DNA of 60,231 nt, counting the filler. It is 7 parts of 7 records of this genome, joined end to end, with 100 filler letters (N's around TTAATTAATTAA, not from the genome) between each part and the next. Parts side by side here need not be neighbours in the genome. Positions count along the whole stretch, not along the records: positions 27,760 to 43,910 come from SRR31156797_6406; 6 more parts are not named here. One strand, written 5' to 3'. Shown here piece after piece: positions 9,544 to 49,739 of the stretch (its first letter is position 1; every line of letters begins with the position of its first letter). The translations under genes were made by a program, and so were the position numbers. The notes below the pieces were generated by a model, which was not told the origin of the DNA, made no database searches, and worked only from the letters and a program-made list of their open reading frames with translations.

Positions 9544-9643
9544 NNNNNNNNNNNNNNNNNNNNNNNNNNNNNNNNNNNNNNNNNNNNTTAATTAATTAAN
9601 NNNNNNNNNNNNNNNNNNNNNNNNNNNNNNNNNNNNNNNNNNN
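9544..9643. other. Artificial contig linker
   Basis: N-run + TTAATTAATTAA + N-run; composition and taxon change across it. Confidence 0.98.
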
Positions 9644-15960: not shown

Positions 15961-16060
15961 NNNNNNNNNNNNNNNNNNNNNNNNNNNNNNNNNNNNNNNN
16001 NNNNTTAATTAATTAANNNNNNNNNNNNNNNNNNNNNNNNNNNNNNNNNNNNNNNNNNNN
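15961..16060. other. Artificial contig linker
   Basis: N-run with TTAATTAATTAA. Confidence 0.98.
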
Positions 16061-21882: not shown

Positions 21883-21982
21883 NNNNNNNNNNNNNNNNNN
21901 NNNNNNNNNNNNNNNNNNNNNNNNNNTTAATTAATTAANNNNNNNNNNNNNNNNNNNNNNNNNNNNNNNNNNNNNNNNNNNN
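21883..21982. other. Artificial contig linker
   Basis: N-run with TTAATTAATTAA. Confidence 0.98.
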
Positions 21983-27659: not shown

Positions 27660-27759
27660 NNNNNNNNNNNNNNNNNNNNNNNNNNNNNNNNNNNNNNNNN
27701 NNNTTAATTAATTAANNNNNNNNNNNNNNNNNNNNNNNNNNNNNNNNNNNNNNNNNNNN
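27660..27759. other. Artificial contig linker
   Basis: N-run with TTAATTAATTAA. Confidence 0.98.
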
Positions 27760-29962: not shown

Positions 29963-30400
29963 ATGGGCATAGTTCCTTTTTCACCTGAGTCTTCTTCCGT
30001 GACGAAGTCCTTTGTTCTTTCTGTTCTTGCAGGTGAAGGATTTGACTATGATCCATTGAAAGACTCGGACCTTGATTATATAGAAGCTGTCTATCTCAGG
30101 GATGGTGGGGCATTCTTCCTGTTTCTTGACAAAGACAAGGTTGTCGGCACGTCTGCTGTAAAGGCCCTGGCCTCCGGTGCATGTGAGATAAAAAGGATCT
30201 ATGTCAGAAAAGAATGTCGTGGAATGGGTATTGGGTCTGCAATGTTTGAAGCTGCCCTTAGACATGCAGAGAAGAGATTCTCCCGTATAATGCTCAAGAC
30301 TGATGGCTCACTTGAAAGGGCAATATCGATGTATCTCAAAAGCGGCTTCACAGTGGTAAAAGAAGAGAATGAAGTAATGTATTTTGAAAAGGTCCTATGA
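29963..30400 (+). CDS. GNAT N-acetyltransferase
   Basis: EIKRIYV..RGMGIG; AISMYLKSGF. Confidence 0.85.
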   Translation: MGIVPFSPESSSVTKSFVLSVLAGEGFDYDPLKDSDLDYIEAVYLRDGGAFFLFLDKDKVVGTSAVKALASGACEIKRIYVRKECRGMGIGSAMFEAALRHAEKRFSRIMLKTDGSLERAISMYLKSGFTVVKEENEVMYFEKVL

Positions 30401-30420
30401 CTCTGTTCTGATACGTATTT

Positions 30421-30873
30421 TCATATGGTCCTGATCATTGCGACCTCGTCGCAGTTAGGGAATTTAGGACAGTTTATACATCCGGTCCATACTTTATGCG
30501 GGAGCATCTGTTTGTCTATTACTTTAAAACCCTGTTTCTTGAAGAAGGGTACTGCATAGGTCAGGGTGAACACGTCTTTGACTCCAAGATCCTTTGCCTC
30601 TTCAATGCAGGCGTTCACCAGTTTTGTGCCAATTCCTTTGTCCCGGTATTCTGCTTTGACTGCAAAGGACAGCACTTCTGCCATATCCTCCCAGCTTATC
30701 TGAAGGGCACAGCAGCCGATAATCTCACCGTCGTTCTCACAGACGTAGAAACTGCGTGTGAACTCATAAAGTTCACTCAATGATCGCTGGAGCATCATCT
30801 CCTGCTTTGCATAAGTATCAATGATACTCTTGATTGCTGGTATATCTTTGACCGTAGCTTTCCTTATTATCAA
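30421..30873 (-). CDS. Short ArgA-like amino-acid N-acetyltransferase
   Basis: MLQRSLSELYE, LPHKVWTGCINCPKFPNCDEVAM. Confidence 0.85.
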   Translation of the reverse strand: MIIRKATVKDIPAIKSIIDTYAKQEMMLQRSLSELYEFTRSFYVCENDGEIIGCCALQISWEDMAEVLSFAVKAEYRDKGIGTKLVNACIEEAKDLGVKDVFTLTYAVPFFKKQGFKVIDKQMLPHKVWTGCINCPKFPNCDEVAMIRTI

Positions 30874-30909
30874 TTATGCATCACCGGTAATTATTAGAAT
30901 GAGAAATAG

Positions 30910-30984
30910 CGAGCGTGAAGGGATTTGAACCCCCGGCTTGCAGCTTAGGAGGCTGCCGCCATATCCTGACTAGGCCACACGCTC
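30910..30984 (-). tRNA. tRNA-Arg(CCT)
   Basis: Cloverleaf GAGCGTG..; anticodon arm GCAGC-CTCCTAA-GCTGC; T-arm GGTTCAAATCC; CCA not encoded. Confidence 0.95.
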
Positions 30985-31096
30985 ATGTTGCGCTACTCAC
31001 GTAATAACATTCAATATCTTAAAGTTATTGGTGAAAAAGCTTTCTTGAAGGGAATTTCTCTGTGTTTTATGCTTATTTTCCGATAAATCAAGAATA

Positions 31097-31993
31097 TCAG
31101 GATTCTATTTGTGAATCCAGCAGATCTATTAGTTTCTTATTTTTTTCAACGGAAGCATCAATACCAAGCATTTCAGCCGGAAATCCCAGGGCAAGTCCCA
31201 TTAGCTGTGTATAGTGCAGTACAGGTATGTCAAATTGGGTTCCGCTTGATTCATTAATCTCTTCCTGGCCACTGTCAAGTTGCATATGACAGAATGGGCA
31301 GGAATTAACAATGCAATCCACTCCGGCTTCTGTGATCCTGACCAGTTTTGCTTCAGTCATTTTAAGGGATTTGTCCTTCATGGAAGAGCGGACTCCTCCA
31401 CCAGCCCCGCAGCACGCGGCTTTGTCAGGGTATTCTATGCTTGTTGCTCCGAGTGCCGTGACAAGCTCGTCAAAGAACGTTGGTCTTTCAAAGCCACCAA
31501 GTCCTCTCTCCTTTGTGGGTTTTATAAGGTGGCATCCGTAATGGACAGCAACCCTGATGTCCAGTTTTCTTTCAACATGGGAGCTAATTTCTTCTGGCCC
31601 AAACTCTTTGTGGAGGTATTCTATAATGTGTCTGACATCAATATTGCCTTTGAATTCCTTTTCCACTTTTTTAAGATGAGCGTTGATGTTATCTCTGTTT
31701 TTTTCATTTTCTTTTAAGCTGCGGTTTGCATCTTCAAGAGTGCTGAAACATCCATTGCAGATTGTCAGCATATCCCTGTCCATCTCCTCTGACAACACAA
31801 TATTGCGGCTTGCCAATGTCAACCATGTTGTCCTGTCAAAGGACCGGAAAACACCGGGTGCAGGACAGCAGGAAGCACCTGGAAGGTCAGTGCAGTCAAT
31901 ATCCAGTTTTGCAAGACAGAGTTTTGTTGCCATTTCGATTTCGGGATATCTGTTGGGTATTAGGCATCCCATGAAGAGTGATAGTCCTTTCAT
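31097..31993 (-). CDS. hdrB: Heterodisulfide reductase subunit B
   Basis: Two CCG domains: SCCPAPG/ICNGC and HYGCH/CCGAGGG/CPFCHMQ. Confidence 0.93.
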   Translation of the reverse strand: MKGLSLFMGCLIPNRYPEIEMATKLCLAKLDIDCTDLPGASCCPAPGVFRSFDRTTWLTLASRNIVLSEEMDRDMLTICNGCFSTLEDANRSLKENEKNRDNINAHLKKVEKEFKGNIDVRHIIEYLHKEFGPEEISSHVERKLDIRVAVHYGCHLIKPTKERGLGGFERPTFFDELVTALGATSIEYPDKAACCGAGGGVRSSMKDKSLKMTEAKLVRITEAGVDCIVNSCPFCHMQLDSGQEEINESSGTQFDIPVLHYTQLMGLALGFPAEMLGIDASVEKNKKLIDLLDSQIES

Positions 31994-32520
31994 ATTTTTT
32001 CCTTCGCACTGTTTTTTTCTTTTTGCTGGAATATGAGTTCCTCAAAACCACAGGATGTGATAAGCGTCTTTACTTCTTCCAGCCCGTCTTTATATTTGTG
32101 CACGGTCTCAGGGAGTTCTTCCAGTCCTATCTCTGTTCTCTTCTTTTTGTTTTCACCATTAATGGGTACGGCATGTCCGTATTCAAGAAGCATCATGCAG
32201 ACTTCCCTGTGTTCAGGAAGAATTCTTCCATGGCTGGCAGCTATGGCCCTGATGTCCAGCAAAAGATCTACTATATTAATATCTCTGGGACATCTTTCCT
32301 GGCAGTTATAGCAGGTTGTACACATCCAGAGTTCTTCACTGTCCAGAATATCGCTGGTTTTGCCGGCTGTTTTTATGATTTTCCGTATATTCAGGCTGGT
32401 GTGCCTTCCAGAGGGGCAGCTACCGCTGCAAATTCCACATTGCATGCATCTAAGAGCATCGGCAGAAACATTTCTGAGCCTGTCATGAATGCTTAAATTA
32501 ACTGCATTTTCATCTTCCAT
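31990..32520 (-). CDS. hdrC: Heterodisulfide reductase subunit C
   Basis: CMQCGICSGSCP and LWMCTTCYNCQERCPR. Confidence 0.93.
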   Translation of the reverse strand: MEDENAVNLSIHDRLRNVSADALRCMQCGICSGSCPSGRHTSLNIRKIIKTAGKTSDILDSEELWMCTTCYNCQERCPRDINIVDLLLDIRAIAASHGRILPEHREVCMMLLEYGHAVPINGENKKKRTEIGLEELPETVHKYKDGLEEVKTLITSCGFEELIFQQKEKNSAKEKI

Positions 32521-32816
32521 GTCGTATTCCCTCTAATAAAATCAGTATTTTTGCAAGAATGATAAACTTTCCGCAGGCAATCATGAAAGGCGCGGCAACC
32601 CTGGACACAACCATCCGTTTTCCTATAGCTTTAAGCTTTCCAGAATATGCTGTTTATGGATTGTATAAATTATATATATTATATGTATCCTTACAAATGT
32701 TCTCTAGAATAATGATTTTCTTGAATTTTATATCATTTTAGAGGCAAGTTTAAATAAATATATGGTTTGTTTTTCTTTGAGAAGTGGGTTGCGAATCTCT
32801 TGCTATAATCGATAAG

Positions 32817-32848
32817 TATAAATACTACCTAATAGGTAATGGGATACC
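32817..32848 (+). promoter_or_regulatory. glnA1 TATA box and palindromic operator GGTA-N6-TACC (NrpR-like)
   Basis: TATAAATA 32817-32824; GGTAATGGGATACC 32835-32848 has the geometry of the NrpR box GGAA-N6-TTCC. Confidence 0.55.
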
Positions 32849-32879
32849 ACACCCCCTACTGAATAGAGGAGTAGTCAAT

Positions 32880-34220
32880 ATGACAGACGTAAATCCAGTA
32901 ACAAAGGAAGAAGTATTAAAGGCTGTAGCCGAGAACGATGTTAAATTCATAAGAATCCAGTTCACTGATACCATGGGTATGATCAAGAGCTGGGCAATCC
33001 CAGGAGAGGATCTCGAGGGAGCATTCGAAAATGGTGTGATGTTCGATGGATCATCCATCGAGGGATTCACAAGGATCGAAGAGTCCGATATGGTCCTTAT
33101 GCCAGATCCAACTACTTTCAGGATACTCCCATGGAGACCACAGGAAGGTGCAGTTGCTCGTATCATCGGCGATGTATACAGACCTAACGGTCAGCCATTT
33201 GAGGGTGACCCAAGGTATGTTCTCAAGAAGTCTATCGCAAAGGCAGAAGAAATGGGATACACAATGAACATCGGCCCTGAGCTTGAGTTCTTCCTCTTCG
33301 AACTTGATGATAAAGGTCATCCAACTACAAACCTCACCGACCACGGTGGATACTTCGACTTTGCACCTCTTGACAAGGCACAGGACGTCAGAAGGGCTAT
33401 CGACTTCGCTCTCGAAGAAATGGGCTTCAAGATCGAAGCATCCCACCACGAGGTAGCTCCATCACAGCACGAGATCAACTTCAGATTCGGTGATGTACTC
33501 ACCACATGTGACAACATCGTGACATTCAAGTATGTCGTAAAGTCCATTGCAGCACACATGGGCTACTATGCAACATTCATGCCAAAACCACTCTTTGGTG
33601 AGAATGGTTCAGGTATGCACTCTAACCAGTCACTCATGATGAACGGAGATAATGCATTCTTTGATGAAAACACACCAGATCAGCTCTCGGCAACTGCAAA
33701 GCAGTACATTGCAGGTCTCCTTTCACACGTTCGTGAATTCGCAGCAATCACAAACTCAACAGTCAACTCATACAAGAGACTTGTACCAGGATACGAGGCA
33801 CCTATTTACTGCACATGGTCTGCATCAAACCGCAGTTCCCTTATCAGAATCCCTGCATCAAGAGGAAAGGGTACAAGGGTAGAGCTCAGATGTCCTGACC
33901 CTGCATGCAACCCATATCTTGCATTCGCTGCAATGCTCAGTGCAGGTCTTGACGGTATTGAGAAAGGAATGGAAGCACCAGCATCAACCGATGTCAACAT
34001 CTTCAAGCTTACTGAGGAAGACAGAAAGACAAGAGGTATCGACTCCCTTCCTGGAAACCTTAAGGAAGCAATTGACCTCATGGCTGCCAGTGAATTCGTC
34101 AAGGACGTAGTTGGAGAACATGTATTCGAGAACTACATCGAAGCTAAGAACGCTCAGTGGGACGACTACAAGGCACAGGTTCACCAGTGGGAAATCGACA
34201 AGTACCTTAGCGTACTCTAA
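32880..34220 (+). CDS. glnA: Glutamine synthetase type I (GlnA1)
   Basis: FDGSSIEGF, SHHEVAPSQHE, ATFMPKP, NGSGMH, YKRLVPGYEAP; RBS AGAGGAG. Confidence 0.97.
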   Translation: MTDVNPVTKEEVLKAVAENDVKFIRIQFTDTMGMIKSWAIPGEDLEGAFENGVMFDGSSIEGFTRIEESDMVLMPDPTTFRILPWRPQEGAVARIIGDVYRPNGQPFEGDPRYVLKKSIAKAEEMGYTMNIGPELEFFLFELDDKGHPTTNLTDHGGYFDFAPLDKAQDVRRAIDFALEEMGFKIEASHHEVAPSQHEINFRFGDVLTTCDNIVTFKYVVKSIAAHMGYYATFMPKPLFGENGSGMHSNQSLMMNGDNAFFDENTPDQLSATAKQYIAGLLSHVREFAAITNSTVNSYKRLVPGYEAPIYCTWSASNRSSLIRIPASRGKGTRVELRCPDPACNPYLAFAAMLSAGLDGIEKGMEAPASTDVNIFKLTEEDRKTRGIDSLPGNLKEAIDLMAASEFVKDVVGEHVFENYIEAKNAQWDDYKAQVHQWEIDKYLSVL

Positions 34221-34250
34221 GTAAGGGATTTTCCCTTACTTTCACTTTGC
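34219..34250 (+). terminator. Hairpin plus T-rich tract after glnA1
   Basis: AAGTAAGGG-ATTTT-CCCTTACTT. Confidence 0.5.
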
Positions 34251-34423
34251 ATTTCAATAACTTTCAACTTATTTCAACAGGCGGAAATTTTGGGCCGCTA
34301 AAACGTGAATAGAAGTTGTTCACGAATATCCGGGCTTTTCCTGCATGGATTTTTGCATGGTTAAATTCATATCAGGTAAATACTATCTCATAGCCCCAAG
34401 ACTAAATACTTATAGTGATCAAC

Positions 34424-35476
34424 ATGTGCGGAATTATAGGCGTAATCGATCGGACAATGTCCAGAATGGACGGCTCCAGTATAAAGGAAGCCCTGAGTCT
34501 GATGGATGAAAGAGGAAGTGGAGAAGGCGCAGGATACGTAGCCTATGGCATCTATCCTGATTATGCAGACTGCTATGCTATCCACGTATTTTTTGATAAT
34601 CTGTTAGAACCAAAGACCAGGGTAGATGAAATACTGAAACAGTGGGGAAGGATAGTTCATCAGGAAGAGATCCCTACATACGAACAACCCGGTCTTAAGA
34701 AGGAGCACATCTCCTGGAGATATTTCTTCAAACCATATACTGACCTTATGGTAGGTACCACAGACCCTGACGATGATAATGTCAAGCGTCTTGTGATGAA
34801 TGTCAATGCGAATGTTGAAGGTGCACTTATTTTTTCATCCGGCAAGAATCTTGGTGTATTCAAGGCATCAGGCTGGCCTGAGGATGTAGCCAATTACTTC
34901 AGAATCGAGGATTACAAGGGTTACATATGGCTTGCACACAACCGTTATCCAACCAACACATCAGGATGGTGGGGCGGAGCTCATCCGTTCAATCTGCTTG
35001 ACTGGTCAGTTGTGCACAACGGTGAGATCACCTCATACGGGACCAACCGTCGCTATGTGGAAGGTCACGGTTACCAGTGTACAATGTTAACTGATACTGA
35101 AGTTGTAGCATATCTCTTTGATCTTCTCGGCAGAAGACACGGTCTTCCATCTGAGATGGTTGTCGAAGCACTGGCACCACCTTTCTGGGATGAGATCGAT
35201 GAGATGCCTGAAAAGGAAGAAGAGTTCATGCGTACAATGCGTCTGACATACGGTCCGGCTCTGATGAACGGTCCTTTTGGCATCGTTGTTGCAACAAAAG
35301 ATGGAATAGTAGGTTTTACTGACAGGATAAAACTGCGTCCTCTCATCGTAGGAGAGAACGGACCGCGTCTTTACATCTCAAGTGAAGAGGCAGCTATCCG
35401 TACAATGGACCCTGAAGTAGAGACGATATACATGCCAAGGGCAGGCGAGCCTGTCATCGGGAGGGTTATAGAATGA
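34424..35476 (+). CDS. Glutamate synthase amidotransferase subunit (GltB1)
   Basis: Ntn start MCGIIG; AHNRYPTNT, VHNGEI, TDTEV. Confidence 0.9.
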   Translation: MCGIIGVIDRTMSRMDGSSIKEALSLMDERGSGEGAGYVAYGIYPDYADCYAIHVFFDNLLEPKTRVDEILKQWGRIVHQEEIPTYEQPGLKKEHISWRYFFKPYTDLMVGTTDPDDDNVKRLVMNVNANVEGALIFSSGKNLGVFKASGWPEDVANYFRIEDYKGYIWLAHNRYPTNTSGWWGGAHPFNLLDWSVVHNGEITSYGTNRRYVEGHGYQCTMLTDTEVVAYLFDLLGRRHGLPSEMVVEALAPPFWDEIDEMPEKEEEFMRTMRLTYGPALMNGPFGIVVATKDGIVGFTDRIKLRPLIVGENGPRLYISSEEAAIRTMDPEVETIYMPRAGEPVIGRVIE

Positions 35477-36981
35477 GCCTCGGAAGTGTTCCACTCAAGT
35501 ACAAGATCAGCATCGACCGTGACCAGTGTATGAAGTGCATGCGCTGTGTCGACAACTGTTCCTATGGTGTTTATCGCATAGAAGATGACAAGATCCTCAT
35601 AGACTCACGCAAATGTACTGCATGCCACCGTTGTATCTCCATGTGTCCAAGGGATGCCATAATGCTACAGGAAAGACCGGTTGACTATCGCAGCCACCCA
35701 CTCTGGACAGTAGAGGCACGTGAAGATGTCATCAACCAGGCACGTTCAGGAAAGATTATCCTGGCGGGAATGGGCAATGCAGTTGATTATCCTATTATAT
35801 TTGACAGGCTCTTACTTGACGCATGTCAGGTTACTAATCCAAGTATTGATCCTCTCAGGGAACCAATGGAGCTGAGGACATACATTGGAAAGAAGCCTTC
35901 AAAGCTCGAATTTACAAAGAACAATGGGGATATTGATCTCCAGACAAAGCTGACTCCAAACCTTAAGCTTGATACCCCGATCATGGTGGGTCACATGAGC
36001 TATGGTGCTATCAGCCTTCCTGCCCAGCTCAGTATTGCAAAGGCAGTAAAAGAGACCGGAACCTTCATGGGAACCGGTGAAGGAGGAATGCACGAGGCGA
36101 TCTATCCATATCAGGACCATTCTATAGTCCAGATCGCATCAGGACGTTTCGGTGTCGATATCGACTATCTGGAACGTGGTGCAGCTATTGAGATTAAAGT
36201 AGGACAGGGAGCAAAGCCAGGTATCGGCGGTCACCTTCCAGGAGAGAAGGTATGTGCGGATGTATCCTGCACCCGTATGATTCCATTGGGTTCAGATGCC
36301 ATCAGTCCGGCTCCTCATCATGATATTTACAGTATTGAAGATCTTGCTCAGCTTGTACGCAGTCTTAAGGAAGCCACAGATTGGGAAAAGCCGGTCTTCG
36401 TGAAGATAGCTGCAGTACACAACGTTGCTGCAATTGCCGCCGGTATCGCAAGATCAGATGCAGATGCAGTTGTGATCGATGGTTTCAAGGGTGGCACAGG
36501 CGCGGCACCAAAGGTGTTCAGGGACAATGTAGGTATCCCGATCGAAGCAGCTGTTGCTGCAGTCGACCAGAAGCTCAATGACCAGGGTATCAGGAACGAA
36601 GTATCCATCATAGCCAGTGGTGGCATACGCAACAGTGGCGACCTTGCAAAGTCCATAGCACTTGGTGCAGATGCGATCTATATCGGAACTGCAGCATTGA
36701 TAGCACTCGGATGTCGTGTTTGTGGTAACTGCTATCGTGGACTATGTCCATGGGGTATCGCGACCCAAAAACCTGAACTTGTAAGCCGTATCGATTCGGA
36801 TGTCGGTGCTGAGAACATTGCAAACCTTATCCATGGCTGGACACTTGAATTGAGCGAGCTCATGGGTGCAGCGGGTCTTAACAGTATTGAGAGTCTTCGC
36901 GGCAATCGTGAACGTCTGAGAGGGTACATGCTTGACCAGGGATTGCTTGATGTACTTCAAATCGAATCCATGGGGGCCTGA
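35473..36981 (+). CDS. Glutamate synthase FMN subunit with 2x[4Fe-4S] (GltB2)
   Basis: Two ferredoxin motifs; MSYGAIS, EIKVGQGAKPGIGGHLPGEKV, CRVCGNC..CPWGIATQ. Confidence 0.92.
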   Translation: MSLGSVPLKYKISIDRDQCMKCMRCVDNCSYGVYRIEDDKILIDSRKCTACHRCISMCPRDAIMLQERPVDYRSHPLWTVEAREDVINQARSGKIILAGMGNAVDYPIIFDRLLLDACQVTNPSIDPLREPMELRTYIGKKPSKLEFTKNNGDIDLQTKLTPNLKLDTPIMVGHMSYGAISLPAQLSIAKAVKETGTFMGTGEGGMHEAIYPYQDHSIVQIASGRFGVDIDYLERGAAIEIKVGQGAKPGIGGHLPGEKVCADVSCTRMIPLGSDAISPAPHHDIYSIEDLAQLVRSLKEATDWEKPVFVKIAAVHNVAAIAAGIARSDADAVVIDGFKGGTGAAPKVFRDNVGIPIEAAVAAVDQKLNDQGIRNEVSIIASGGIRNSGDLAKSIALGADAIYIGTAALIALGCRVCGNCYRGLCPWGIATQKPELVSRIDSDVGAENIANLIHGWTLELSELMGAAGLNSIESLRGNRERLRGYMLDQGLLDVLQIESMGA

Positions 36982-36983
36982 AG

Positions 36984-37727
36984 ATGCCGGAACCTTTGGT
37001 TATAGATGTAAAAGGAATGCACTATACTCCGCTTAACAGGCAGATACGTGAAGCAGTGGCTTCTGGTGTAAAAGAAATAGTGCTCAATAATGTCCTTGGA
37101 CAGCGTTTTATTGGAAATGGAGTAAGGGGCGATGCAAAGATCACCATCAATGGTGTTCCGGGCGGAGACCTCGGAATGTTCATGAGTGGTCCGGAATGTG
37201 AGATTTTCGGTAATGCAGAGCATGCTCCCGGTAACACGATGGACAGGGGATCATTGATCATCCACGGAAGCGCCGGAGATGCAGTCGCGCACAGTATGCG
37301 TGGCGGAAAGGTCTTCGTAGAAGGCAATATCGGCTACCGTGGTGGAATTCACATGAAGGAGTATGAGGGCAAGCGTCCTATACTTGCAGTAGGTGGAACA
37401 ACTCATGCATTTCTTGGAGAATACATGGCTGGCGGACTTATCCTTGTTTTTGGTATAGGTCATGACCCGGTAATGGAGGATCGTGGTATCGGTAGTGGTA
37501 TACACGGCGGAGAGATCGTTATCAGGGGTGATGTGAGTGATAAGCTGCTTGGTGTCGGAGCCAAGAAGGTCGATTTCACTGAAGATGATCTGAAAAGGCT
37601 TACTCCTGTGATTGAAGAGTTCTGTGGAAGGTTCGACATAGACCCGTCCCCTTTCCTGGATACGAACTATTCAAGAATAGTCCCTGCAAGCGCCAGACCA
37701 TTTGCAGGTAAGTACACATGGGAGTGA
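36984..37727 (+). CDS. Glutamate synthase GXGXG beta-helix subunit (GltB3)
   Basis: GQRFIG, GNTMDRG, GEYMAGG repeats. Confidence 0.9.
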   Translation: MPEPLVIDVKGMHYTPLNRQIREAVASGVKEIVLNNVLGQRFIGNGVRGDAKITINGVPGGDLGMFMSGPECEIFGNAEHAPGNTMDRGSLIIHGSAGDAVAHSMRGGKVFVEGNIGYRGGIHMKEYEGKRPILAVGGTTHAFLGEYMAGGLILVFGIGHDPVMEDRGIGSGIHGGEIVIRGDVSDKLLGVGAKKVDFTEDDLKRLTPVIEEFCGRFDIDPSPFLDTNYSRIVPASARPFAGKYTWE

Positions 37728-37732
37728 TCATT

Positions 37733-38758
37733 ATGGCAGGTAAGAATTATCTTGATCTTAAGGCAGAAATCTGGGACACAGACAAATGTGCAGCATGTGG
37801 TGCATGTGTAGCTGTATGCCCGGCAGACGCTATTTACTTTGAAGAAGGTGAGAACTCCACACATCCTCTTAACAGTGGTTACTGTAAGGAAGTGAACGAT
37901 GGGGTTCCATGTGGTGCATGCTATGAGGTATGCCCCAGAAATGAAAAGCCATCATCTGAGGTTCTTGGAGAGTACATCAGCATCGCATCTGCAAAGGCAG
38001 AAGTGGCTGTTCCAAGAAAACAGAGCGGTGGAGCTGTGACAGCAATACTGACCAATGCCCTTGATGAGGGTATGATCGATGCAGTGGTAACTGTTGTGGA
38101 AGATCCCTGGACACTCAAGCCTTCATCCGCAGTGATAACTTCCTCAGATGTACTTGTTCACCAGGCAGGAAGTCGCTATAACTGGTGGGTTCCACTTGTT
38201 GCATCACTAAAAGAAGCTGTCATGACACGCAAGTACACCAACATAGCAGTTGTAGGTGTTCCATGTGTCACACAGGCTATGAAACAGATGCGAGAAAGTG
38301 ACCTTGATCTGTTGCGTCCGTTCAGGAAGAACATTCGCCTGGTCGTAGGACTTTTCTGTACCGAGACATTCGACTATGAGAAACTCGTGCAGGATAAGCT
38401 CATTGCAGAGCGCCAGATAGATCCTCTTGACATCATACACTTTGATGTGAAGGGCAAGCTTGAGATCACACTCAAGGACGGCAGCATGACTATCATATCC
38501 CTGAAGGATGTCGATGATTGTGTACGTCCGGGATGTCATATATGTACCGATCTCACAGCTCTGGATTCAGACATATCAGCAGGTTCCATTGGTAGTGAAA
38601 AGGGTTACACGACTCTTATAGTACGCAATCCTGTTGGCAAAGAGTTCGTCAACAGTGCAGTAAACAATGGAAAACTTTCACTTAAAGAAGATGATATTAA
38701 TCTGGAATTGGTGGAAAAGCTCTCCAACAAGAAGCTTGCACGAATGCCAGAGGAGTAA
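37733..38758 (+). CDS. FrhB/FdhB-family F420-binding subunit with ferredoxin domain
   Basis: CAACGACVAVCP, QSGGAVT, VGVPC, GLFCTETF, DISAGSIGS. Confidence 0.88.
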   Translation: MAGKNYLDLKAEIWDTDKCAACGACVAVCPADAIYFEEGENSTHPLNSGYCKEVNDGVPCGACYEVCPRNEKPSSEVLGEYISIASAKAEVAVPRKQSGGAVTAILTNALDEGMIDAVVTVVEDPWTLKPSSAVITSSDVLVHQAGSRYNWWVPLVASLKEAVMTRKYTNIAVVGVPCVTQAMKQMRESDLDLLRPFRKNIRLVVGLFCTETFDYEKLVQDKLIAERQIDPLDIIHFDVKGKLEITLKDGSMTIISLKDVDDCVRPGCHICTDLTALDSDISAGSIGSEKGYTTLIVRNPVGKEFVNSAVNNGKLSLKEDDINLELVEKLSNKKLARMPEE

Positions 38759-38784
38759 CAAAAAACAGAAAATATCACGTTTAT

Positions 38785-38853
38785 GGACACGGTACCTACC
38801 ACTTCCTCTATTCTTCCTAACCATGCGATAGGTACTCGTGTCCTGTCTTTTTT
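38785..38853 (+). ncRNA. Candidate 3'-end hairpin sRNA with a CU-rich loop antisense to nitrogen-gene leaders
   Basis: 14-bp stem (one bulge), 30-nt loop CCACTTCCTCTATTCTTCCTAACCATGCGA, T6 tract; loop complementary to four leaders in this contig. Confidence 0.55.
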
Positions 38854-38975
38854 CACTCAAAGCGGGTAAAATCATGAGGATATGGCATATCCTGCAAAGT
38901 TTTCCGCAATGAATGTGAAGTTAAGAAAAAGACTCTTTTACCGATAATCTAATCTTATATTATTGTTTTGCATAA

Positions 38976-39485
38976 CTATATGTTGATGTTCTTTTTGTAG
39001 TATATCGTATCAACACCATTTCCTCTGTCATCAAGGACGACCACATATGCTTTATATCCTCTATCTTCATAGAATTTCATTGCAGCAGGGTTGCTCGACC
39101 AGGTACAAAGGTATATTTTCCTTATATTCTGCTCTGCCATTATTTCCTCATATCTGGTCGTCAGTCCTTTGCTAACTCCATGGTTTCTGTGCCTGGGATG
39201 TGTGGCAAGGAAATTCACATAAGCACTGTCCTTACCTTTCCAGTCCCTGGTGCATCCGATCATCCCTATAATACCACCAAGGGAGTCAGATAGGTCTGGT
39301 TTGTTTAACCTAGCAATAAGGTAATTAGCCTCAGGTGTGTCAAGACATTTCTGTACTCTTTCAGGAATACCTCCTCCCCTTTCACTCAGGGGGGGATAAA
39401 AATCAGTATCTACAAGTTCAATGAATCTCTTCACATGTAGATAGTCTGTTCTTTTAGCTTCTTTTATAGTAAACTCTGTACTCAT
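38976..39485 (-). CDS. GNAT N-acetyltransferase, downstream of glnA2
   Basis: FLATHPRHRNHGVS, TWSSNPAAMKFYEDRGY; 3 nt after glnA2 stop. Confidence 0.85.
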   Translation of the reverse strand: MSTEFTIKEAKRTDYLHVKRFIELVDTDFYPPLSERGGGIPERVQKCLDTPEANYLIARLNKPDLSDSLGGIIGMIGCTRDWKGKDSAYVNFLATHPRHRNHGVSKGLTTRYEEIMAEQNIRKIYLCTWSSNPAAMKFYEDRGYKAYVVVLDDRGNGVDTIYYKKNINI

Positions 39486-39488
39486 GTC

Positions 39489-40817
39489 TCAGATGGTATT
39501 CAGGTAGCGCTGTATTTCCCAGTCATGTACCTGGGTCCTGTATGCGTCCCACTCTGCCCTTGCAAGTCTCAGTATATTATCGTGGACATGTTCTCCAAGT
39601 GTATCTTTGAGAAGTTCATCATTCTCCAGATGGTCTGCACTCTCGCTGATAGTAGCTGGTAGTGTATCGATTCCGCGTTCGATACGCTCCTTTTTGCTAA
39701 GGTCAAATACATTGTAGTCCATTATCTTTCCCGGATCAAGCCCGTTCTTTATTCCGTCAAGCCCGGCAGCAAGGATCGCTGCGAAGGTAATGTATGGATT
39801 GCATGATGGGTCGGGGCTTCTCAGTTCTACCCTCGTACTTTTCCCTCTTGCGGAAGGTATGCGTATCAGGGAGCTTCGGTTTGCGCCCGACCATGTGATA
39901 TAGACCGGAGCCTCATATCCTGGTATGAGTCTTTTATAGGAGTTCACCAGTGGATTTGAAATGCATGAAATAGCTTTGATGTGTTTTAATACACCGGCTA
40001 TGAAATGTTTTGCGTTCTCGCTTATCTCCATCTCTGTGTCAGGGTCATAGAATGCATTCTCCTCCTCCCTGGAAAGTGACAGGTTAATGTGCATGCCGGA
40101 ACCGTTCTCAACAGCAATGGGTTTTGGCATGAAGGTTGCATGCAGGCCGTGAAGCTTTGCAATGGTCCGTGTGACATATTTGAATGTCATGACATTATCT
40201 GCTGTTGCCAGTGCATCCCCGTATTTAAAATCGATCTCATGCTGTCCGAAGGCAACTTCATGGTGAGATGCTTCTATATCGAAGTTGAGTTCTGTGAGGG
40301 TCAGGACAATATCTCTTCTGATATCTTCTGCAAGGTCAGTGGGGGCGAACTCAAAGTATCTTCCATAGTCATGTGGTGTTGTCGTAGCTTTACCATCTAC
40401 CTTTTCGAAAAGGAAGAATTCCAGTTCAGGGCCAACATTAAGTGAGTATCCCATCTCTTCGGCTTCTTTCATGACCTTTTTAAGGACATAGCGGGGGTCC
40501 GCCTCGAACTGTCTTCCATCTGGCATGTGTATGTCACATATCAACCTTGCAACACCACCTTTATCCTTGCTCCATGGGAGTATCGCAAATGTTTTGATGT
40601 CCGGTTTTAAGACCATATCCGATTCATCGATCCTGACAAATCCTTCAATGGATGAACCATCAAAGGATATTCCTGTTGTAAGGGCCTTTTCTATCTGTGT
40701 GGCCGGAATCTCGACATCCTTGACCACTCCCTGTATGTCCGTGAACTGTAAACGTATGAATTTTACGTTATTCGTTTCAATGGCTTTGATAACATCTTCC
40801 TTATTGCATACAATCAT
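39489..40817 (-). CDS. glnA: Second glutamine synthetase type I (GlnA2)
   Basis: FDGSSIEGF, SHHEVAFGQHE, ATFMPKP, YKRLIPGYEAP; ATG at 40817 after AGGCGA. Confidence 0.93.
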   Translation of the reverse strand: MIVCNKEDVIKAIETNNVKFIRLQFTDIQGVVKDVEIPATQIEKALTTGISFDGSSIEGFVRIDESDMVLKPDIKTFAILPWSKDKGGVARLICDIHMPDGRQFEADPRYVLKKVMKEAEEMGYSLNVGPELEFFLFEKVDGKATTTPHDYGRYFEFAPTDLAEDIRRDIVLTLTELNFDIEASHHEVAFGQHEIDFKYGDALATADNVMTFKYVTRTIAKLHGLHATFMPKPIAVENGSGMHINLSLSREEENAFYDPDTEMEISENAKHFIAGVLKHIKAISCISNPLVNSYKRLIPGYEAPVYITWSGANRSSLIRIPSARGKSTRVELRSPDPSCNPYITFAAILAAGLDGIKNGLDPGKIMDYNVFDLSKKERIERGIDTLPATISESADHLENDELLKDTLGEHVHDNILRLARAEWDAYRTQVHDWEIQRYLNTI

Positions 40818-41354
40818 TAAATCGCCTGCTATTCTTCCTTTTTCTTCCTCTATGTTCTGCACATGAAATGCAAAATTGCATTAGGCTATCTAAGTTCATG
40901 AAGTTATAGTTTGCTGTAAAACCATATTTTGAAAGTAACGATCAATGAAATTTTTAACTCGTAGTATTTGGTGAAAAATGAAAAACTTGACTAAAAAAGA
41001 AATATCCATCTTCATTTGATGGTTGGAACTGTTAATGATGTTGTAAAATTTTCGGTATCATGGTGTGTAAACGATTACATTTTTTATTTGGTATGAATGA
41101 AATGCTATAATGTGCGCATATCATTGTGGCCATGATCTGAATGTATACTGTAAATATGGAACATTCATAATGGTATTATATTTACATTATTATTCATCTA
41201 AATAACATACGTTTTGGGAATAGTTATGGACAAATATATATTTCATATTACTATTCTAAATCCATACTCTTCAAATAAACATATATACTAATAGGCAGCA
41301 AAAGGCTGCTGAATACTGTTCCTGTGTCATGCTATACCTTCGGAAATAGCAATC

Positions 41355-41475
41355 TATATATAATTGCACATGCCATCCGTTATCCTACTATTATTTTCCA
41401 AATGGTTAGGGACAGGCGGAGTTAGGAAGGCCGTCTTGTGATAATAGTATTGTAAAATAGAGGAAGTGACAAAGC
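41355..41475 (+). promoter_or_regulatory. TATA box and structured 5' leader of the FMN-GOGAT-like gene
   Basis: TATATATAA at 41355; inverted repeats TACTATTAT/ATAATAGTA and an internal stem; RBS AGAGGAAGTG. Confidence 0.5.
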
Positions 41476-43068
41476 ATGGGCAACCTTAGGCAACCAAATG
41501 CAAATGATGCCACTCGGACCTTTAATAGGTCAAAGAGTGTAGTACCGATGTCAGGACTCTGTACACGTTGTGTGGACGGATGTCGTGGAAACTGTGAAAT
41601 ATTCAAATCAACTTTCAGGGGACGTGAAGTTCTTTACCCGGGACCTTTCGGCGAAGTTACAGCCGGTGCAGACAAAGACTATCCAATAGACTACTCCCAC
41701 CTGAACATACAGGGATATGCCGTTGGAGCCATTGGTATGCCAGATGATATGGTGCCTGGCCCTGAAACAGCAAGATTCCCTAATGTAAGTACCGAAACAG
41801 AATACGGATGGGACAAGAAAGTAAAGATGAAGGTGCCAATATTTACCGGGGCACTGGGTTCCACCGATATTGCAAGGAAGAACTGGGAACACTTCGCTAT
41901 TGGTGCAGCTATTTCAGGTGTCACCATAGTATGTGGTGAAAATGTTTGTGGTGTTGACCCTGAGCTTAAAAGAGATAACAATGGCCTTGTATCCGAATCT
42001 CCTGAGATGGATCGCAGGATCGAGTTATACAAGAAGTATCATGATGGCTACGGTGAAATGCTCGTTCAGATGAACGTAGAGGACACAAAGCTTGGTGTTG
42101 CTGAATATCTTTCCAGCAAACATGAAATGGACACCATTGAACTCAAATGGGGACAGGGTGCAAAATGTATCGGTGGAGAGATCAAGGTAAAGGAGCTTGA
42201 CCGCGCTATCGAGCTTAAGAAAAGAGGTTACATCGTAACACCTGACCCTGAACTTGCATCTGTACAGGAAGCATACAAGATTGGAGCTATAAGAGAATTC
42301 GAAAGACATTCCAGACTTGGTTTTGTCACTGAAGAAGGATTCCATGAAGAATGCGACAGGCTCAGAGAACTTGGATTTGACCGTATCACATTGAAGACCG
42401 GTGCATACTCCATGGCAGAAACTGCAATGGCAATAAAATACAGCTCTGATGCAAAGATCGACCTGCTCACCTACGACGGTGCCCCTGGTGGAACCGGTAT
42501 GAGCCCATGGCCAATGATGGAAGAATGGGGAACACCAACAATCTACCTGCAATCACTTGTCCAGGAATTCGCAGATAAGCTTACTGCAAAGGGCAAGAGA
42601 GTACCTGACCTTGCAATGGCTGGAGGATTCTCAAGCGAAGATGGTATCTACAAGGTTCTTGCAATGGGTGCTCCATACTTCAAGGCAGTTTGCATGGGCC
42701 GTGGCCTTATGATCCCAGGAATGGTTGGTAAGAACATTGGCAAGTGGCTTGATGAAGGAGATCTTCCAAAGACAGTGGCTGAATTTGGCCACAGGAAAGA
42801 AGAGATCTTTGTACACTACGAAGAACTTGAAGAGCGCTATGGCAGTGAAATGGACAATATTCCATTGGGTGCCCTTGGTATCTACTCCTATTCCGAAAAG
42901 ACAAGAGTAGGTCTGCAGCAACTCATGGCCGGTTCAAGAAGATTCAACACAACTACACTCTCACGTAAGGACCTTATGGCACTTACAGAAGATGCAGCAA
43001 AGGTAACCGGAATTTCCTATGTAATGGATGCTTACAGGGACATTGCAGAAGAGATACTTGACGGATAA
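41476..43068 (+). CDS. Stand-alone FMN-binding glutamate synthase family protein
   Basis: CTRCVDGCRGNCE, ELKWGQGAKCIGGE, DGAPGGTGMSP, AGGFSSED. Confidence 0.88.
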   Translation: MGNLRQPNANDATRTFNRSKSVVPMSGLCTRCVDGCRGNCEIFKSTFRGREVLYPGPFGEVTAGADKDYPIDYSHLNIQGYAVGAIGMPDDMVPGPETARFPNVSTETEYGWDKKVKMKVPIFTGALGSTDIARKNWEHFAIGAAISGVTIVCGENVCGVDPELKRDNNGLVSESPEMDRRIELYKKYHDGYGEMLVQMNVEDTKLGVAEYLSSKHEMDTIELKWGQGAKCIGGEIKVKELDRAIELKKRGYIVTPDPELASVQEAYKIGAIREFERHSRLGFVTEEGFHEECDRLRELGFDRITLKTGAYSMAETAMAIKYSSDAKIDLLTYDGAPGGTGMSPWPMMEEWGTPTIYLQSLVQEFADKLTAKGKRVPDLAMAGGFSSEDGIYKVLAMGAPYFKAVCMGRGLMIPGMVGKNIGKWLDEGDLPKTVAEFGHRKEEIFVHYEELEERYGSEMDNIPLGALGIYSYSEKTRVGLQQLMAGSRRFNTTTLSRKDLMALTEDAAKVTGISYVMDAYRDIAEEILDG

Positions 43069-43070
43069 AC

Positions 43071-43109
43071 AAAGTAAGTGTAATACTTACTTTACTTTTT
43101 CCTTTTTTT
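43071..43109 (+). terminator. Hairpin plus oligo-T terminator
   Basis: AAAGTAAGT-GTAAT-ACTTACTTT followed by T-runs. Confidence 0.55.
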
Positions 43110-43187
43110 ATTCTGGATTATAGTCAAAAGCCTGTTACACTTATCTTTTGTCAGGCTAACAGTTGAATTTGACATTGAACGATATCT

Positions 43188-43337
43188 TTATTTTCTGTTG
43201 TAAAGCTCAGTTTGTACAGTCACAGGGATCTCAACATCTTTGACAACTCCCTGTATGTCCGTGAACTGCAAACGTATGAATTTTAGGTTATTCGTTTCAA
43301 TGGCTTTGACAACGTCTTCCTTGTTGCATACAATCAT
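43188..43337 (-). pseudogene. Truncated copy of the glnA2 5' end (49-aa ORF) with duplicated upstream region
   Basis: MIVCNKEDVVKAIETNNLKFIRLQFTDIQGVVKDVEIP nearly identical to GlnA2; DNA similarity extends to about 43432. Confidence 0.8.
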
Positions 43338-43573
43338 TAAATCGCATGCTATTCTTCCTCTATTATTCTGCAAAAATGATGCAAAATCTTTCCTGAATAT
43401 CTAAGTTCAGACAATTATGGTTATTGCTGTAAAAAAGGGTGATTTATAACTGTTATACCAAAACTATAAATGACATTTATATATTAAATAATTAAATCAA
43501 TATTAAAATAAATTCTGAAAAAAACATTAAAAATGAAACAGGGGATATAAAAATAACAACTAAAATAATTGGT

Positions 43574-43910
43574 TTGCTTTTTTTGCTTTTTTTGTTAATA
43601 TTCTCCGAGCAAGCTCTTTGCAAGGAAGATGCACCGGATTCATGGACTCTCAATATCACCGCTCCTAATTCTATTCAGAATTTGACTATTGGTTTTAATC
43701 CTTCTGCCACTGAAAAACTTGATTCTTTTGATTGTTGGGCTCTTCCCCACTACCCGTTTGGTAAAACATTTTTGCTGTTGGATTACTGTTATTCAAAAAA
43801 TATAAAACAGAACGAAAATGGTGCGAGTTGGAGTCTTATAATGAGGGTCCCGGACGATCAGACCACAACTTTAAGATGGGATTCCAGTTCAATACCTGGT
43901 GTAAGCGTGC
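43574..43910 (+). CDS. Secreted/cell-surface protein, 5' part; start uncertain
   Basis: Hydrophobic signal-like N-terminus followed by a beta-rich region. Confidence 0.5.
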
Positions 43911-44010
43911 NNNNNNNNNNNNNNNNNNNNNNNNNNNNNNNNNNNNNNNNNNNNTTAATTAATTAANNNNNNNNNNNNNNNNNNNNNNNNNNNNNNNNNN
44001 NNNNNNNNNN
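43911..44010. other. Artificial contig linker
   Basis: N-run with TTAATTAATTAA. Confidence 0.98.
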
Positions 44011-44047
44011 ATAAATGCTCATAGTTCTAGTCTCTATACAACGAAAT

Positions 44048-44422
44048 TTGAAACTAATAAAGTTATTCATATGTGTTGGTTTAGCTACGGCAATCGTAAG
44101 CGGTTGTGAAGATTCGCAAGTAAAAACATTGATGACAAACCGCCCTTCAAATTTACAGGATGTAGTCAATTCGCCGATTAGAAAGCCAACGAATGAGAGA
44201 ATTCACCAACGAGTCAACGAAAATTGTTTAGATCATGTTCAACCAATCACTATTGGAGCACTGGGCGTAGAGTTTGGGAAAACTCGATACGAAATCGAAC
44301 ATAATCTTCCAGATCCTAAACCTATTCAGCAGGGGGATGAGGAGGGGTTCTTAGCGTGTAATCTTGATCCACAAAATATAGCGGATGCTCACTTAGAACT
44401 TTCCGTGGAACTGAGTGGTTAG
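44048..44422 (+). CDS. Hypothetical lipoprotein
   Basis: LKLIKLFICVGLATAIVSG-C lipobox; TTG start uncertain. Confidence 0.5.
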   Translation: MKLIKLFICVGLATAIVSGCEDSQVKTLMTNRPSNLQDVVNSPIRKPTNERIHQRVNENCLDHVQPITIGALGVEFGKTRYEIEHNLPDPKPIQQGDEEGFLACNLDPQNIADAHLELSVELSG

Positions 44423-44530
44423 CGTTGTGAATAGATAAAGAAACGTTTGCCGCTGAGCATTGCATATAGAGCCGATCTTTTCTGCATTGGGTTAGGGCAA
44501 TAGGCGAAACAAATTAATTGAGAACCTTGT

Positions 44531-44863
44531 ATGAAATTTTTATCAAATCCCTTACTTCTAGTTTTTGTCGGAGTATCCGCATTATTCTTACCTAAAGTGT
44601 ATGCAGACGTAAATCACATAGACAGTGTTAATGAGTCGGAAGAATTGACCGTTGAACTTCATGGTGACTTTGACGAGGACAGCCGTGTGGTTGATATTGA
44701 TATTATTCTGATAGAACACGTACAAATTGAGGAAGGTCTGCTCTGCAAAGAAGCTGAGAAAGTGTTTGCTAATGTGTTTAATAGAGGTGTGACAGGTAAT
44801 ATCTCGGTTTCAGCCATTGACGTTAATGGTCAGCCTGTATTTTGTGGAGATTTTACAGGTTAA
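44531..44863 (+). CDS. Hypothetical exported acidic protein
   Basis: Signal peptide ending VYA; 110 aa. Confidence 0.55.
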   Translation: MKFLSNPLLLVFVGVSALFLPKVYADVNHIDSVNESEELTVELHGDFDEDSRVVDIDIILIEHVQIEEGLLCKEAEKVFANVFNRGVTGNISVSAIDVNGQPVFCGDFTG

Positions 44864-45020
44864 GGTCATATCTCTCTACGCTCCTATGCCTATATTCGAA
44901 ATATTCTCATGAGGTTACTAGACGGCGGTTTATAGGCTCATTTCGATACTATTGATTGAGCTAATGTAGTTAATGGCTAATGATGCCTCATATTGTGGGT
45001 TAGCTGAGACTGCTTGAGTT

Positions 45021-45162
45021 TCAACCAAATTCAAAAGTCGTTTTTAGGTATTGATGTATACAAACCACATCGGTATCAATACATGCTAATCGATGAATTC
45101 TTCTACTATTGCGATGTAGATAAACACATTCCGCGATGTGTGAAATAGAACCTTCAAGTCAT
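45021..45162 (+). repeat. Direct-repeat copy of 48629-48769 (3' end of the ToxS-like gene)
   Basis: 117/128 nt identical up to the stop codon by manual alignment. Confidence 0.95.
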
Positions 45163-45186
45163 TTTTCATATTATCCTCCTATCGCA

Positions 45187-45780
45187 CTAGGCAGTTTCTT
45201 TTATCTGTATCAGCTCAACAATCGAATCAACATTACATTTATTCAAAATGCGGCTTTTGTATGTGCTTACCGTTTTATTGCTTATAGCAAGCAGCTCTGA
45301 AATACGTTTATTGCTAAAACCTTTTACTAAATAGTTGTAAACGATGGCTTCGCGCTTCGTAAGAGCTGAAAACTTGTTGTTAATATCGTGTCTAAATACA
45401 TCGAACCCAAGAACAATGCTTGATACCGCATTCTCGATGACTTCAATAGCTTCTGTTTTTGAAACATATCCGTTAGCACCGAGTTTTTTCGCAGTATCTG
45501 AATACATTTCGTGGGTACTACTCGAGACAAACAGAATTTTTCCTGAATACTGCTTTGCACGCATACGGCGTAAAAACTCGAAGCCATCAGAGTCCGTCAA
45601 TTGAATATCTAAAATAATTAAGTCTATTTTATTTTCTTTTAATACAGAGGAAGCTGAAAAAGTATTATTGGCAATAAAAACTGTCTCAAAACCATGGCGA
45701 CTTAGAAGCATTTCTTCCATCGCTTTCTGGACTATTGGAAAGCTATCGAGGACTAGTGCAGAAGAACTTTTAATTGACAA
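45187..45780 (-). CDS. NarL/EvgA/FimZ-type response regulator (no kinase nearby)
   Basis: Receiver IILDIQL..DGFE..GYVSK; LuxR HTH LTKRE..ISNKTVSTYKSRI. Confidence 0.88.
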   Translation of the reverse strand: MSIKSSSALVLDSFPIVQKAMEEMLLSRHGFETVFIANNTFSASSVLKENKIDLIILDIQLTDSDGFEFLRRMRAKQYSGKILFVSSSTHEMYSDTAKKLGANGYVSKTEAIEVIENAVSSIVLGFDVFRHDINNKFSALTKREAIVYNYLVKGFSNKRISELLAISNKTVSTYKSRILNKCNVDSIVELIQIKETA

Positions 45781-46121
45781 AATATTTTCCTTATAAAAAA
45801 TTTGAGTATCACCAGATTGCTAACTAGCCGTTAGTTAACGACTGAATTGCCCTGCGATACGGGCTTTGATGCGTAATTCCAATGGAATGCGAAAATGCCT
45901 AAAATTGAGTGATTATTAAACAGTGCACCGAAATTTGGGAAACCCACTTTTAATTATTACATCGTAAGTGTTTTTTTGTTCATTCTCCAAGCGTTCATTA
46001 TCTGTTCTTGGGGGTTAATATGATCAACATACCTAGTATTAGTAGTATTATTTTAAATGTAATAGTGCTGTCCATTATTTCACCTGATATTCACTATGAC
46101 TCAATGGCTATAATTGAATGG

Positions 46122-49639: not shown

Positions 49640-49739
49640 NNNNNNNNNNNNNNNNNNNNNNNNNNNNNNNNNNNNNNNNNNNNTTAATTAATTAANNNNN
49701 NNNNNNNNNNNNNNNNNNNNNNNNNNNNNNNNNNNNNNN
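49640..49739. other. Artificial contig linker
   Basis: N-run with TTAATTAATTAA. Confidence 0.98.

Follow-up and report, generated by a model that had tools for sequence, protein, structure and literature searches.

To our knowledge, targets have been established for only a handful of archaeal regulatory RNAs. The nitrogen riboregulator sRNA154 of Methanosarcina mazei is described as having CU-rich loops, among them an anti-RBS loop covering the ribosome-binding site of glnA2, and as acting also on glnA1 (PMC5867862, PMC11549558, PMC3177094); the NrpR operator motif of the same organism is given as GGTA-N6-TACC (PMC3177094). A second M. mazei RNA, sRNA162, is reported to use distinct domains for its cis- and trans-encoded targets (PMC3510493). 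Among bacterial RNAs, GlnZ is described as an sRNA derived from the 3'UTR of the enterobacterial glnA mRNA, sharing the terminator of that mRNA and acting by base-pairing (PMC9731577). Archaeal transcription termination is described as U-tract-dependent, with the participation of aCPSF1 (PMC8716108), and the FrhB-linked type of GOGAT has been proposed to be an F420-dependent glutamate synthase, under the name FGltS (PMC3448663).

The locus and its 3'UTR hairpin

We analysed a 60,231-nt stretch of DNA (the window) from a Methanolobus-like methanogen; the top matches to its FrhB were Methanolobus genomes, with 78-86% amino-acid identity. A gltB1-gltB2-gltB3-frhB-like operon, a putative F420-dependent glutamate synthase (GOGAT), lies here among GS genes and ends in a hairpin. 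We propose, with a probability of roughly 70%, that the loop of this 3'UTR hairpin is a base-pairing regulatory module. The relevant features are:

32880-34220, plus strand: glnA1 (ATG at 32880)
34424-38758, plus strand: gltB1-gltB2-gltB3-frhB-like operon, assigned by Pfam and NCBIfam domains (gltB1 ATG at 34424; frhB-like stop codon at 38756-38758)
38772-38784, plus strand: conserved 5' flank ATATCACGTTTAT preceding the stem, kept in most alignment rows and different in the L167-172 group
38785-38798, plus strand: 5' stem arm GGACACGGTACCTA of the 14-bp stem in the window
38799-38828, plus strand: single-stranded 30-nt CU-rich loop CCACTTCCTCTATTCTTCCTAACCATGCGA, unpaired in the MFE structure
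38799-38812, plus strand: loop module 1, anti-Shine-Dalgarno-like, CCACTTCCTCTATT (RNA CCACUUCCUCUAUU)
38814-38828, plus strand: loop module 2, TTCCTAACCATGCGA (RNA UUCCUAACCAUGCRA)
38829-38843, plus strand: 3' stem arm with a bulged T at 38836, followed by TGTC
38848-38853, plus strand: T6 tract, the likely transcript end
38976-39485, minus strand: GNAT gene
39489-40817, minus strand: glnA2 (ATG at 40817)
41476-43068, plus strand: "GltB-like" ("FMN-GOGAT") gene, with PF01645 only (ATG at 41476)

The order glnA1, gltB1B2B3-frhB, hairpin, then GNAT and glnA2 facing the hairpin from the other side, was found in 20 of the 20 neighbourhoods of 20 kb that were fetched. At locus L192 (genome G024) the hairpin and GNAT are kept, and glnA2 was not seen in its 20-kb neighbourhood. 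The window also holds a tRNA gene at 30910-30984 on the minus strand (Rfam RF00005, 61.7 bits), and six pairs of 44-N runs, probably masked stretches, interrupt ORFs at 9544-9643, 15961-16060, 21883-21982, 27660-27759, 43911-44010 and 49640-49739. At 32835-32848, 32 nt 5' of the glnA1 ATG, GGTAATGGGATACC matches the M. mazei NrpR operator; it is the sole match to GGTA-N6-TACC in the window, where 0.39 would be expected by chance, and the near-identical GGTAATGGG(A/T)TAC(C/T) is present in glnA1 leaders of relatives. A further sequence, CCATCCGTTATCCTACTATTA at 41373-41393, lies 3' of a TATA-like box preceding the GltB-like gene (relatives have GCCAACCG(T/A)TATCCTACTA), and a similar CCATCCGTTTTCCTATAGC is found at 32611-32629, about 250 nt 5' of glnA1; the two are a possible shared operator.

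The 14-bp stem, 30-nt CU-rich loop and T6 tract that the original prediction placed at 38785-38853, after the GltB1-B2-B3-FrhB operon, are all present, the stem beginning 27 nt past the frhB-like stop. The plus strand folds with the loop open at -24.7 kcal/mol (z = -2.9), and one of 200 shuffles was as stable. We examined 151 genomes of the family Methanosarcinaceae, of which 43 matched a 221-nt query by BLAST. A covariance model built on 38 distinct sequences gave a single strong match (E <= 2e-13) in each of 42 of the 151 genomes, and three further weak matches that are probably due to chance. Five Methanolobus-type loci reached via FrhB have the hairpin in the same position, and the Methanosarcina loci have just a short terminator hairpin there. 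A metagenome scan with FrhB returned distant relatives alone, at no more than 66% identity, none of them with the loop core.

These alignments establish the structure, the strand and the conservation of the loop. At the 15 modelled pairs, 95.2% of alignment cells are paired, versus 20-56% when the partner column is slid. Double-sided changes occur at four stem pairs, and the covariation score is 0.264 versus 0.175 for shuffled alignments, with none of 500 shuffles reaching 0.264. All 38 distinct sequences carry the loop blocks CTTCCTC and TAACCATG unchanged, an invariance that is inflated because only the first five relatives were found without a similarity search whose query contained the loop. 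Both the stem covariation and the loop conservation to be expected in relatives were thus found. The 15 distinct stems, when read on the plus strand, contain 192 Watson-Crick, 18 G-U and 9 mismatched pairs, versus 192, 2 and 25, respectively, on the minus strand; the G-U pairs therefore place the RNA on the plus strand. The T-run 3' of the stem has at least five T within 16 nt in 29 of the 38 sequences, is a T4 in six, and is weaker in three. We conclude that the hairpin is a genuine RNA family, conserved on the plus strand across the sequences compared.

No Rfam 15 family matches the hairpin (positions 30000-46000, both strands, E up to 10); elsewhere the search returned a tRNA and a chance snoRNA match. 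By eye we saw no convincing internal promoter for the hairpin. It sits in the 3'UTR of an mRNA and shares the operon's terminator, as 3'UTR-derived sRNAs do. Downstream, a second conserved hairpin occupies 38861-38910, with GCGG...CCGC around a variable inner hairpin, and of 16 sequences 13 give it a better fold on the minus strand. Next, at 38953-38972 and directly after the GNAT stop, comes TATATTATTGTTTTGCA, which hardly varies and is BRE/TATA-like if read on the minus strand. A C/D-box reading of the region 3' of the hairpin was dropped by eye, the window having neither CTGA nor proper boxes there.

We also compared the hairpin with sRNA154, which was located by the primer given in PMC11549558 in one Methanosarcina-sized genome, at locus L258, where it comes with a GGTA-N6-TACC operator. 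The hairpin model found no match in this locus at E up to 10. By BLAST on the same 151 genomes, sRNA154 gave 27 strong matches, none of them in the 42 hairpin-bearing genomes, along with three short weak matches (E 5e-4 to 8e-3). The 42 hairpin genomes (2.0-3.5 Mb) and the 27 sRNA154 genomes (3.3-5.8 Mb) are disjoint sets, and about 80 of the 151 genomes have neither RNA. By model and by BLAST, then, the hairpin is not a detectable homologue of sRNA154, and its novelty therefore stands.

Complementary sites at nitrogen-assimilation genes

All of the complementary sites that had been proposed for the loop are present where the original prediction put them. It had missed the strongest partner, gltB1, whose two sites were unlisted. 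The sites in the window are:

34353-34363, plus strand: gltB1 site 1, TTGCATGGTTA, 61-71 nt 5' of the gltB1 ATG, complementary to module 2
34511-34521, plus strand: gltB1 site 2, AGAGGAAGTGG, codons 30-33, complementary to module 1
41402-41410 and 41421-41429, plus strand: GltB-like leader sites of 9 nt each, complementary to module 2
41456-41468, plus strand: GltB-like site of 13 nt over the ribosome-binding site, complementary to module 1
40829-40839, minus strand: glnA2 leader site AGGAAGAATAG (11 nt), complementary to module 2
40844-40853, minus strand: glnA2 leader site ATAGAGGAAG (10 nt), complementary to module 1
43349-43364, minus strand: duplicated glnA2 leader sites, two overlapping 11-mers
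32861-32870, plus strand: glnA1 ribosome-binding-site match GAATAGAGGA (10 nt), complementary to module 1

The whole window (both strands, 120 kb) contains eight perfect matches of at least 10 nt outside the hairpin, and seven of these, lying between 32.8 and 43.4 kb, fall in the 11-kb GS/GOGAT cluster. We ranked the starts of the 54 non-overlapping ORFs of at least 100 aa in the window by their longest perfect match from -80 to +100: the GltB-like gene has 13 nt, glnA2 and gltB1 each 11, glnA1 10, and all others at most 9. By hybridisation energy (25-nt target windows, 53 starts) gltB1 ranks first, at -26.4 kcal/mol, the GltB-like gene 5th, glnA2 8th and glnA1 below 15th. The expectation that the nitrogen genes would outrank other starts thus holds for match length, where they are the top four of 54, and only in part for energy, by which gltB1 alone stands out. 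An unrestricted RNAduplex scan of the window put GC-rich coding stretches on top, with the leaders not prominent in it. Copies of the module 1 complement, ATAGAGGAAGT, are common, with 34 matches in five genomes versus 39 for a reversed control.

Across the relatives, the mean longest match to the genome's own loop is 12.6 nt for the GltB-like gene, 10.7 for gltB1, 9.5 for glnA2 and 8.9 for glnA1, with gltB1 starts taken from an ATG motif and the glnA1 start offsets approximate. The control starts gltB2, gltB3, frhB and GNAT have means of 5.9-6.5, the same as the 5.8-6.3 given by shuffled loops, and none of their roughly 40 loci reaches 9. The two loop words are contiguous in the hairpin, and at the targets they lie 45-150 nt apart in antiparallel, colinear order. 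From this complementarity we infer that the loop pairs with the first genes of nitrogen-assimilation units.

The gltB1 sites flank the start codon in the antiparallel, colinear order needed for simultaneous pairing with modules 2 and 1. TTGCATGGTT, 60-70 nt 5' of the gltB1 ATG, is invariant in 41 of 41 loci, one from the window and 40 from further genomes. The 11-mer TTGCATGGTTA has 15 copies in total in a set of five complete genomes, of which 5 are at gltB1, 4 are the antisense of the loop and 6 are scattered at non-orthologous positions; the reversed control has 3 copies, and gltB1 is the sole genome-wide location at which the 11-mer is conserved. Within the gene, codons 29-34 read GAA (A/C)GA GGA AGT GG(A) GAA in 41 of 41 loci, with a variant third position of Gly in two of them. 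Silent positions are frozen across these codons, and the adjoining Gly and Ala codons vary freely. Hairpin-less taxa (Methanosarcina and others) keep the peptide ERGSG(E/D)GAG in 17 of 17 loci with varying codons (GGC/GGT/GGG, CGC/CGG); at these 17 loci AGAGGAAGTGG is absent throughout, as is the upstream motif from positions -85 to -45. The frozen silent sites in gltB1 amount to an RNA-level constraint on coding sequence.

One clade has changed its loop from CTC-T to CTC-G. The paired gltB1 Arg codon is CGA in 9 of the 10 loci of this clade and AGA in 31 of 31 others; the exception, L182, has a G-type loop and AGA. Other loop variants (GCGA, GTAA and CCGC) are wobble-compatible with invariant targets, and a CCTC variant is uncompensated, its wobble pairing not kept.

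The upstream gltB1 site may lie ahead of the promoter, and would then be outside the transcript that starts there; conserved hairpins further upstream weakly suggest that the site is transcribed. These hairpins, at 34280-34345 in the glnA1-gltB1 spacer, consist of a variable-sequence stem with a T-rich loop, followed by GTGAATA...GTTCAC with G-U variants. They suggest a long structured 5'UTR, and alifold gives no double-sided covariation for them.

The GltB-like gene was found in 52 of the 151 genomes, and 47 of its leaders could be read. A match of at least 9 nt to the genome's own loop occurs in 27 of the 32 leaders from hairpin-bearing genomes versus 1 of the 15 from hairpin-less genomes; that lone match is a 9-mer across the start codon, and the other 14 leaders have no sites. 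The usual sites are ATGGTTAGGAA near -75 and AATAGAGGAAGTG over the ribosome-binding site. They are lost in 5 of the 32 hairpin-bearing genomes. How far the gene is from the hairpin varies widely, and both sites are kept even at 400 kb (G082). Of 23 genomes with a U-type loop, 21 have A as the base 5' of GAGGAAG at the GltB-like site. Among genomes with a G-type loop this base is C in two, U in four and A in one, one leader having no readable site, so that six of the seven readable sites carry a changed base (C or U). Since this base shifts with the G-type loop, a second target tracks the same loop change as gltB1. What had been proposed from one leader and its ribosome-binding site is supported: the sites are conserved, covary with the loop and are absent where the hairpin is absent, as far as these leaders tell.

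At glnA2, both proposed leader sites exist, and a match of at least 9 nt to the own loop is conserved in 32 of 40 loci (22 of 23 in group A, 5 of 5 in B, 4 of 10 in C and 1 of 2 others). The mean match is 9.4 nt; shuffled loops average 5.75, and none of 300 shuffles exceeds 6.2. Loops of the own group match better than swapped loops. All five complete genomes have AGGAAGAATAG in the glnA2 leader; its 22 matches comprise 5 in the leader, 5 to the hairpin itself and 12 elsewhere. The site is lost in 6 of 10 group-C loci, as well as in L005 and L273; in four group-C genomes it lies at codons 2-6 instead, pairing with clade-specific loop bases. On this record of complementarity, glnA2 appears to be a good target.

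The sites proposed in the leader of a glnA fragment are also present, and they are not independent of the glnA2 sites because they lie in a duplicated glnA2 leader. The minus-strand segment 43188-43385 repeats glnA2 from its promoter through the leader to codon 40, with a 49-codon ORF at 43188-43337 (GlnA N-terminus, E = 4.8e-6). This duplicate was seen only in the window among 24 sources checked, and could be a remnant, encode a small protein or serve as a decoy.

The case for glnA1 fared less well: the proposed 10-nt match at its ribosome-binding site is there, but a match of at least 9 nt to the own loop occurs in only 25 of 38 loci, it consists mostly of the Shine-Dalgarno sequence plus AAUA, and its energy rank is low. 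We regard glnA1 as the weakest of the candidate targets.

Other readings of the hairpin

A possible objection to the base-pairing interpretation is that the hairpin is a mere terminator or stability element, the loop being kept by a bound protein (Lsm/SmAP, a nuclease or a nitrogen-signal protein) and the matches to ribosome-binding sites arising from anti-Shine-Dalgarno-like composition. The position of the hairpin and T6 tract soon after a stop codon would suit it, as would the generic nature of the module 1 complement and the unremarkable energy ranks of glnA1 and glnA2. This reading nevertheless leaves much unexplained, namely the frozen silent sites of gltB1 and their restriction to hairpin lineages, the switch from AGA to CGA and the altered ribosome-binding site, both in step with the change in the loop, the partners of module 2, and the null result at the gltB2, gltB3, frhB and GNAT starts. 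We consider it unlikely.

The original prediction had itself allowed that the functional RNA might be on the minus strand, as a sponge. Such an RNA, either the 3'UTR of a GNAT-glnA2 transcript or an sRNA with the BRE/TATA-like motif at 38953-38972 as its promoter, would act as a Shine-Dalgarno-like decoy. The strand does fold well (-32.3 kcal/mol, z = -3.7), the downstream hairpin 2 favours it in most sequences, the conserved A/T-rich motif lies upstream in that orientation, and T-runs follow the hairpin on the minus strand in the window. The stem variants speak against it: they form G-U pairs on the plus strand and A-C mismatches on the minus strand (G-U 18 versus 2; mismatches 9 versus 25). 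Moreover, a plus-strand tract of T4 or more is present in 35 of 38 sequences, and the loop transitions are wobble-compatible with sense-strand targets only when the loop is read on the plus strand. The sponge is disfavoured on these counts, and we hold a minus-strand RNA to be very unlikely.

We give still less credence to the view that the shared words at gltB1, glnA2, the GltB-like gene and inside the hairpin are double-stranded DNA operators for a nitrogen regulator. A covarying stem is an RNA feature; one partner lies within a coding region and others over ribosome-binding sites; the words are contiguous in the loop and well separated, in antiparallel colinear order, at the targets; and the C-to-T and A-to-G loop changes keep RNA wobble pairing, not the DNA word. 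Operators would account for the location of TTGCATGGTT about 15-20 bp 5' of an A/T-rich, TATA-like block at gltB1, and for the recurrence of TTTTGCAT(GG) at the glnA2 promoter region.

It is scarcely credible that the element is a diverged sRNA154, despite the resemblance in CU-rich anti-RBS loops and glnA2 targeting to what is described in PMC5867862, or a small protein from the 28-codon ORF that starts at ATG 38783 in the window, since the sRNA154 locus gives no match to the hairpin model, no strong sRNA154 match falls in a hairpin-bearing genome, the hairpin has no GGTA-N6-TACC operator, and the ORF is shifted out of frame among relatives by a 1-nt indel before a loop whose bases are identical, and lacks its ATG in the L167-172 group.

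Proposed regulation and comparison with known RNAs

The base-pairing reading thus seems to us the best account of the hairpin. The mRNA of gltB1-gltB2-gltB3-frhB would end in the conserved stem-loop and U-tract carrying a two-module loop. On its own 4.4-kb mRNA this loop would pair with two sites that bracket the gltB1 start, at about -65 and at codons 30-33, as a 5'-3' contact or as feedback by a released 3' fragment. In trans, its partners would be the GltB-like gene and glnA2, at their leaders and ribosome-binding sites, with glnA1 as a less certain one. A duplex over or beside the Shine-Dalgarno sequence would block translation initiation, and thereby, we propose, transcription of the GOGAT operon would be coupled to the amounts made of the GS isoenzymes and of the alternative, GltB-like enzyme. 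Pairing in vivo, blocked ribosome-binding sites at the GltB-like gene and glnA2, and contact or feedback at gltB1 are what the co-conserved and partly covarying sites lead us to expect. Weighing against a base-pairing role, the covariation is essentially one clade-level loop change, with exceptions.

Our searches on sRNA154, on Methanolobus sRNAs, GS and GOGAT, and on archaeal UTR-derived RNAs gave no description of this element; the TSS and sRNA tables for M. psychrophilus (PMC5378194) may list its transcript. Nor did we find an archaeal regulatory RNA described as embedded in an mRNA 3'UTR with covariation-supported targets. The hairpin combines a conserved single-stranded seed with conserved complementary candidate targets, as a 3'UTR-derived base-pairing sRNA would, and its sequence suggests an RNA regulator of nitrogen use that had not been described before. 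It offers a defined seed, four candidate target mRNAs, natural compensatory variants and a phylogenetic contrast with sRNA154, so that the coordination of GS and glutamate synthase in non-Methanosarcina methanogens becomes directly testable. More tentatively, we suggest that one 3'-end loop may do two jobs, making a 5'-3' contact at the start of the first gene and acting in trans on GS/GOGAT mRNAs, as the Methanolobus-branch counterpart of sRNA154. If that were true, evolution would have equipped the same nitrogen circuit with unrelated RNAs in the two branches of the family.

Among the known systems, the U-tract terminators of archaea share with the hairpin the T6 tract directly 3' of it; unlike the hairpin, they need neither a covarying 15-bp stem nor an invariant 30-nt loop. 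The M. mazei sRNA162 is likewise an archaeal RNA with two distinct domains and with cis and trans targets; it is, however, an independent gene unlinked to GS/GOGAT, and neither Rfam nor the model links its sequence to the hairpin. GlnZ, which depends on Hfq and RNase E, resembles the hairpin as a regulator within the 3'UTR of a nitrogen-assimilation mRNA whose terminator it shares, with base-pairing a candidate mode of action for the hairpin too. It differs in being bacterial and in targeting carbon-metabolism mRNAs, whereas the hairpin has partners on its own mRNA as well.

The likeness to sRNA154 is broader: both RNAs are nitrogen-related, belong to the same family of organisms, have CU-rich anti-RBS loops and share glnA2 as a target, which for the hairpin means complementarity. 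In contrast, sRNA154 stands alone as a gene of about 130 nt that has its own promoter and NrpR operator, and the hairpin is a 3'UTR element without an operator whose best partners are the GOGAT-type genes. Expression restricted to nitrogen limitation is a further mark of sRNA154. Taken together, these comparisons suggest that the hairpin would work in the manner of sRNA154 and of bacterial 3'UTR sRNAs such as GlnZ, while constituting a separate RNA family.
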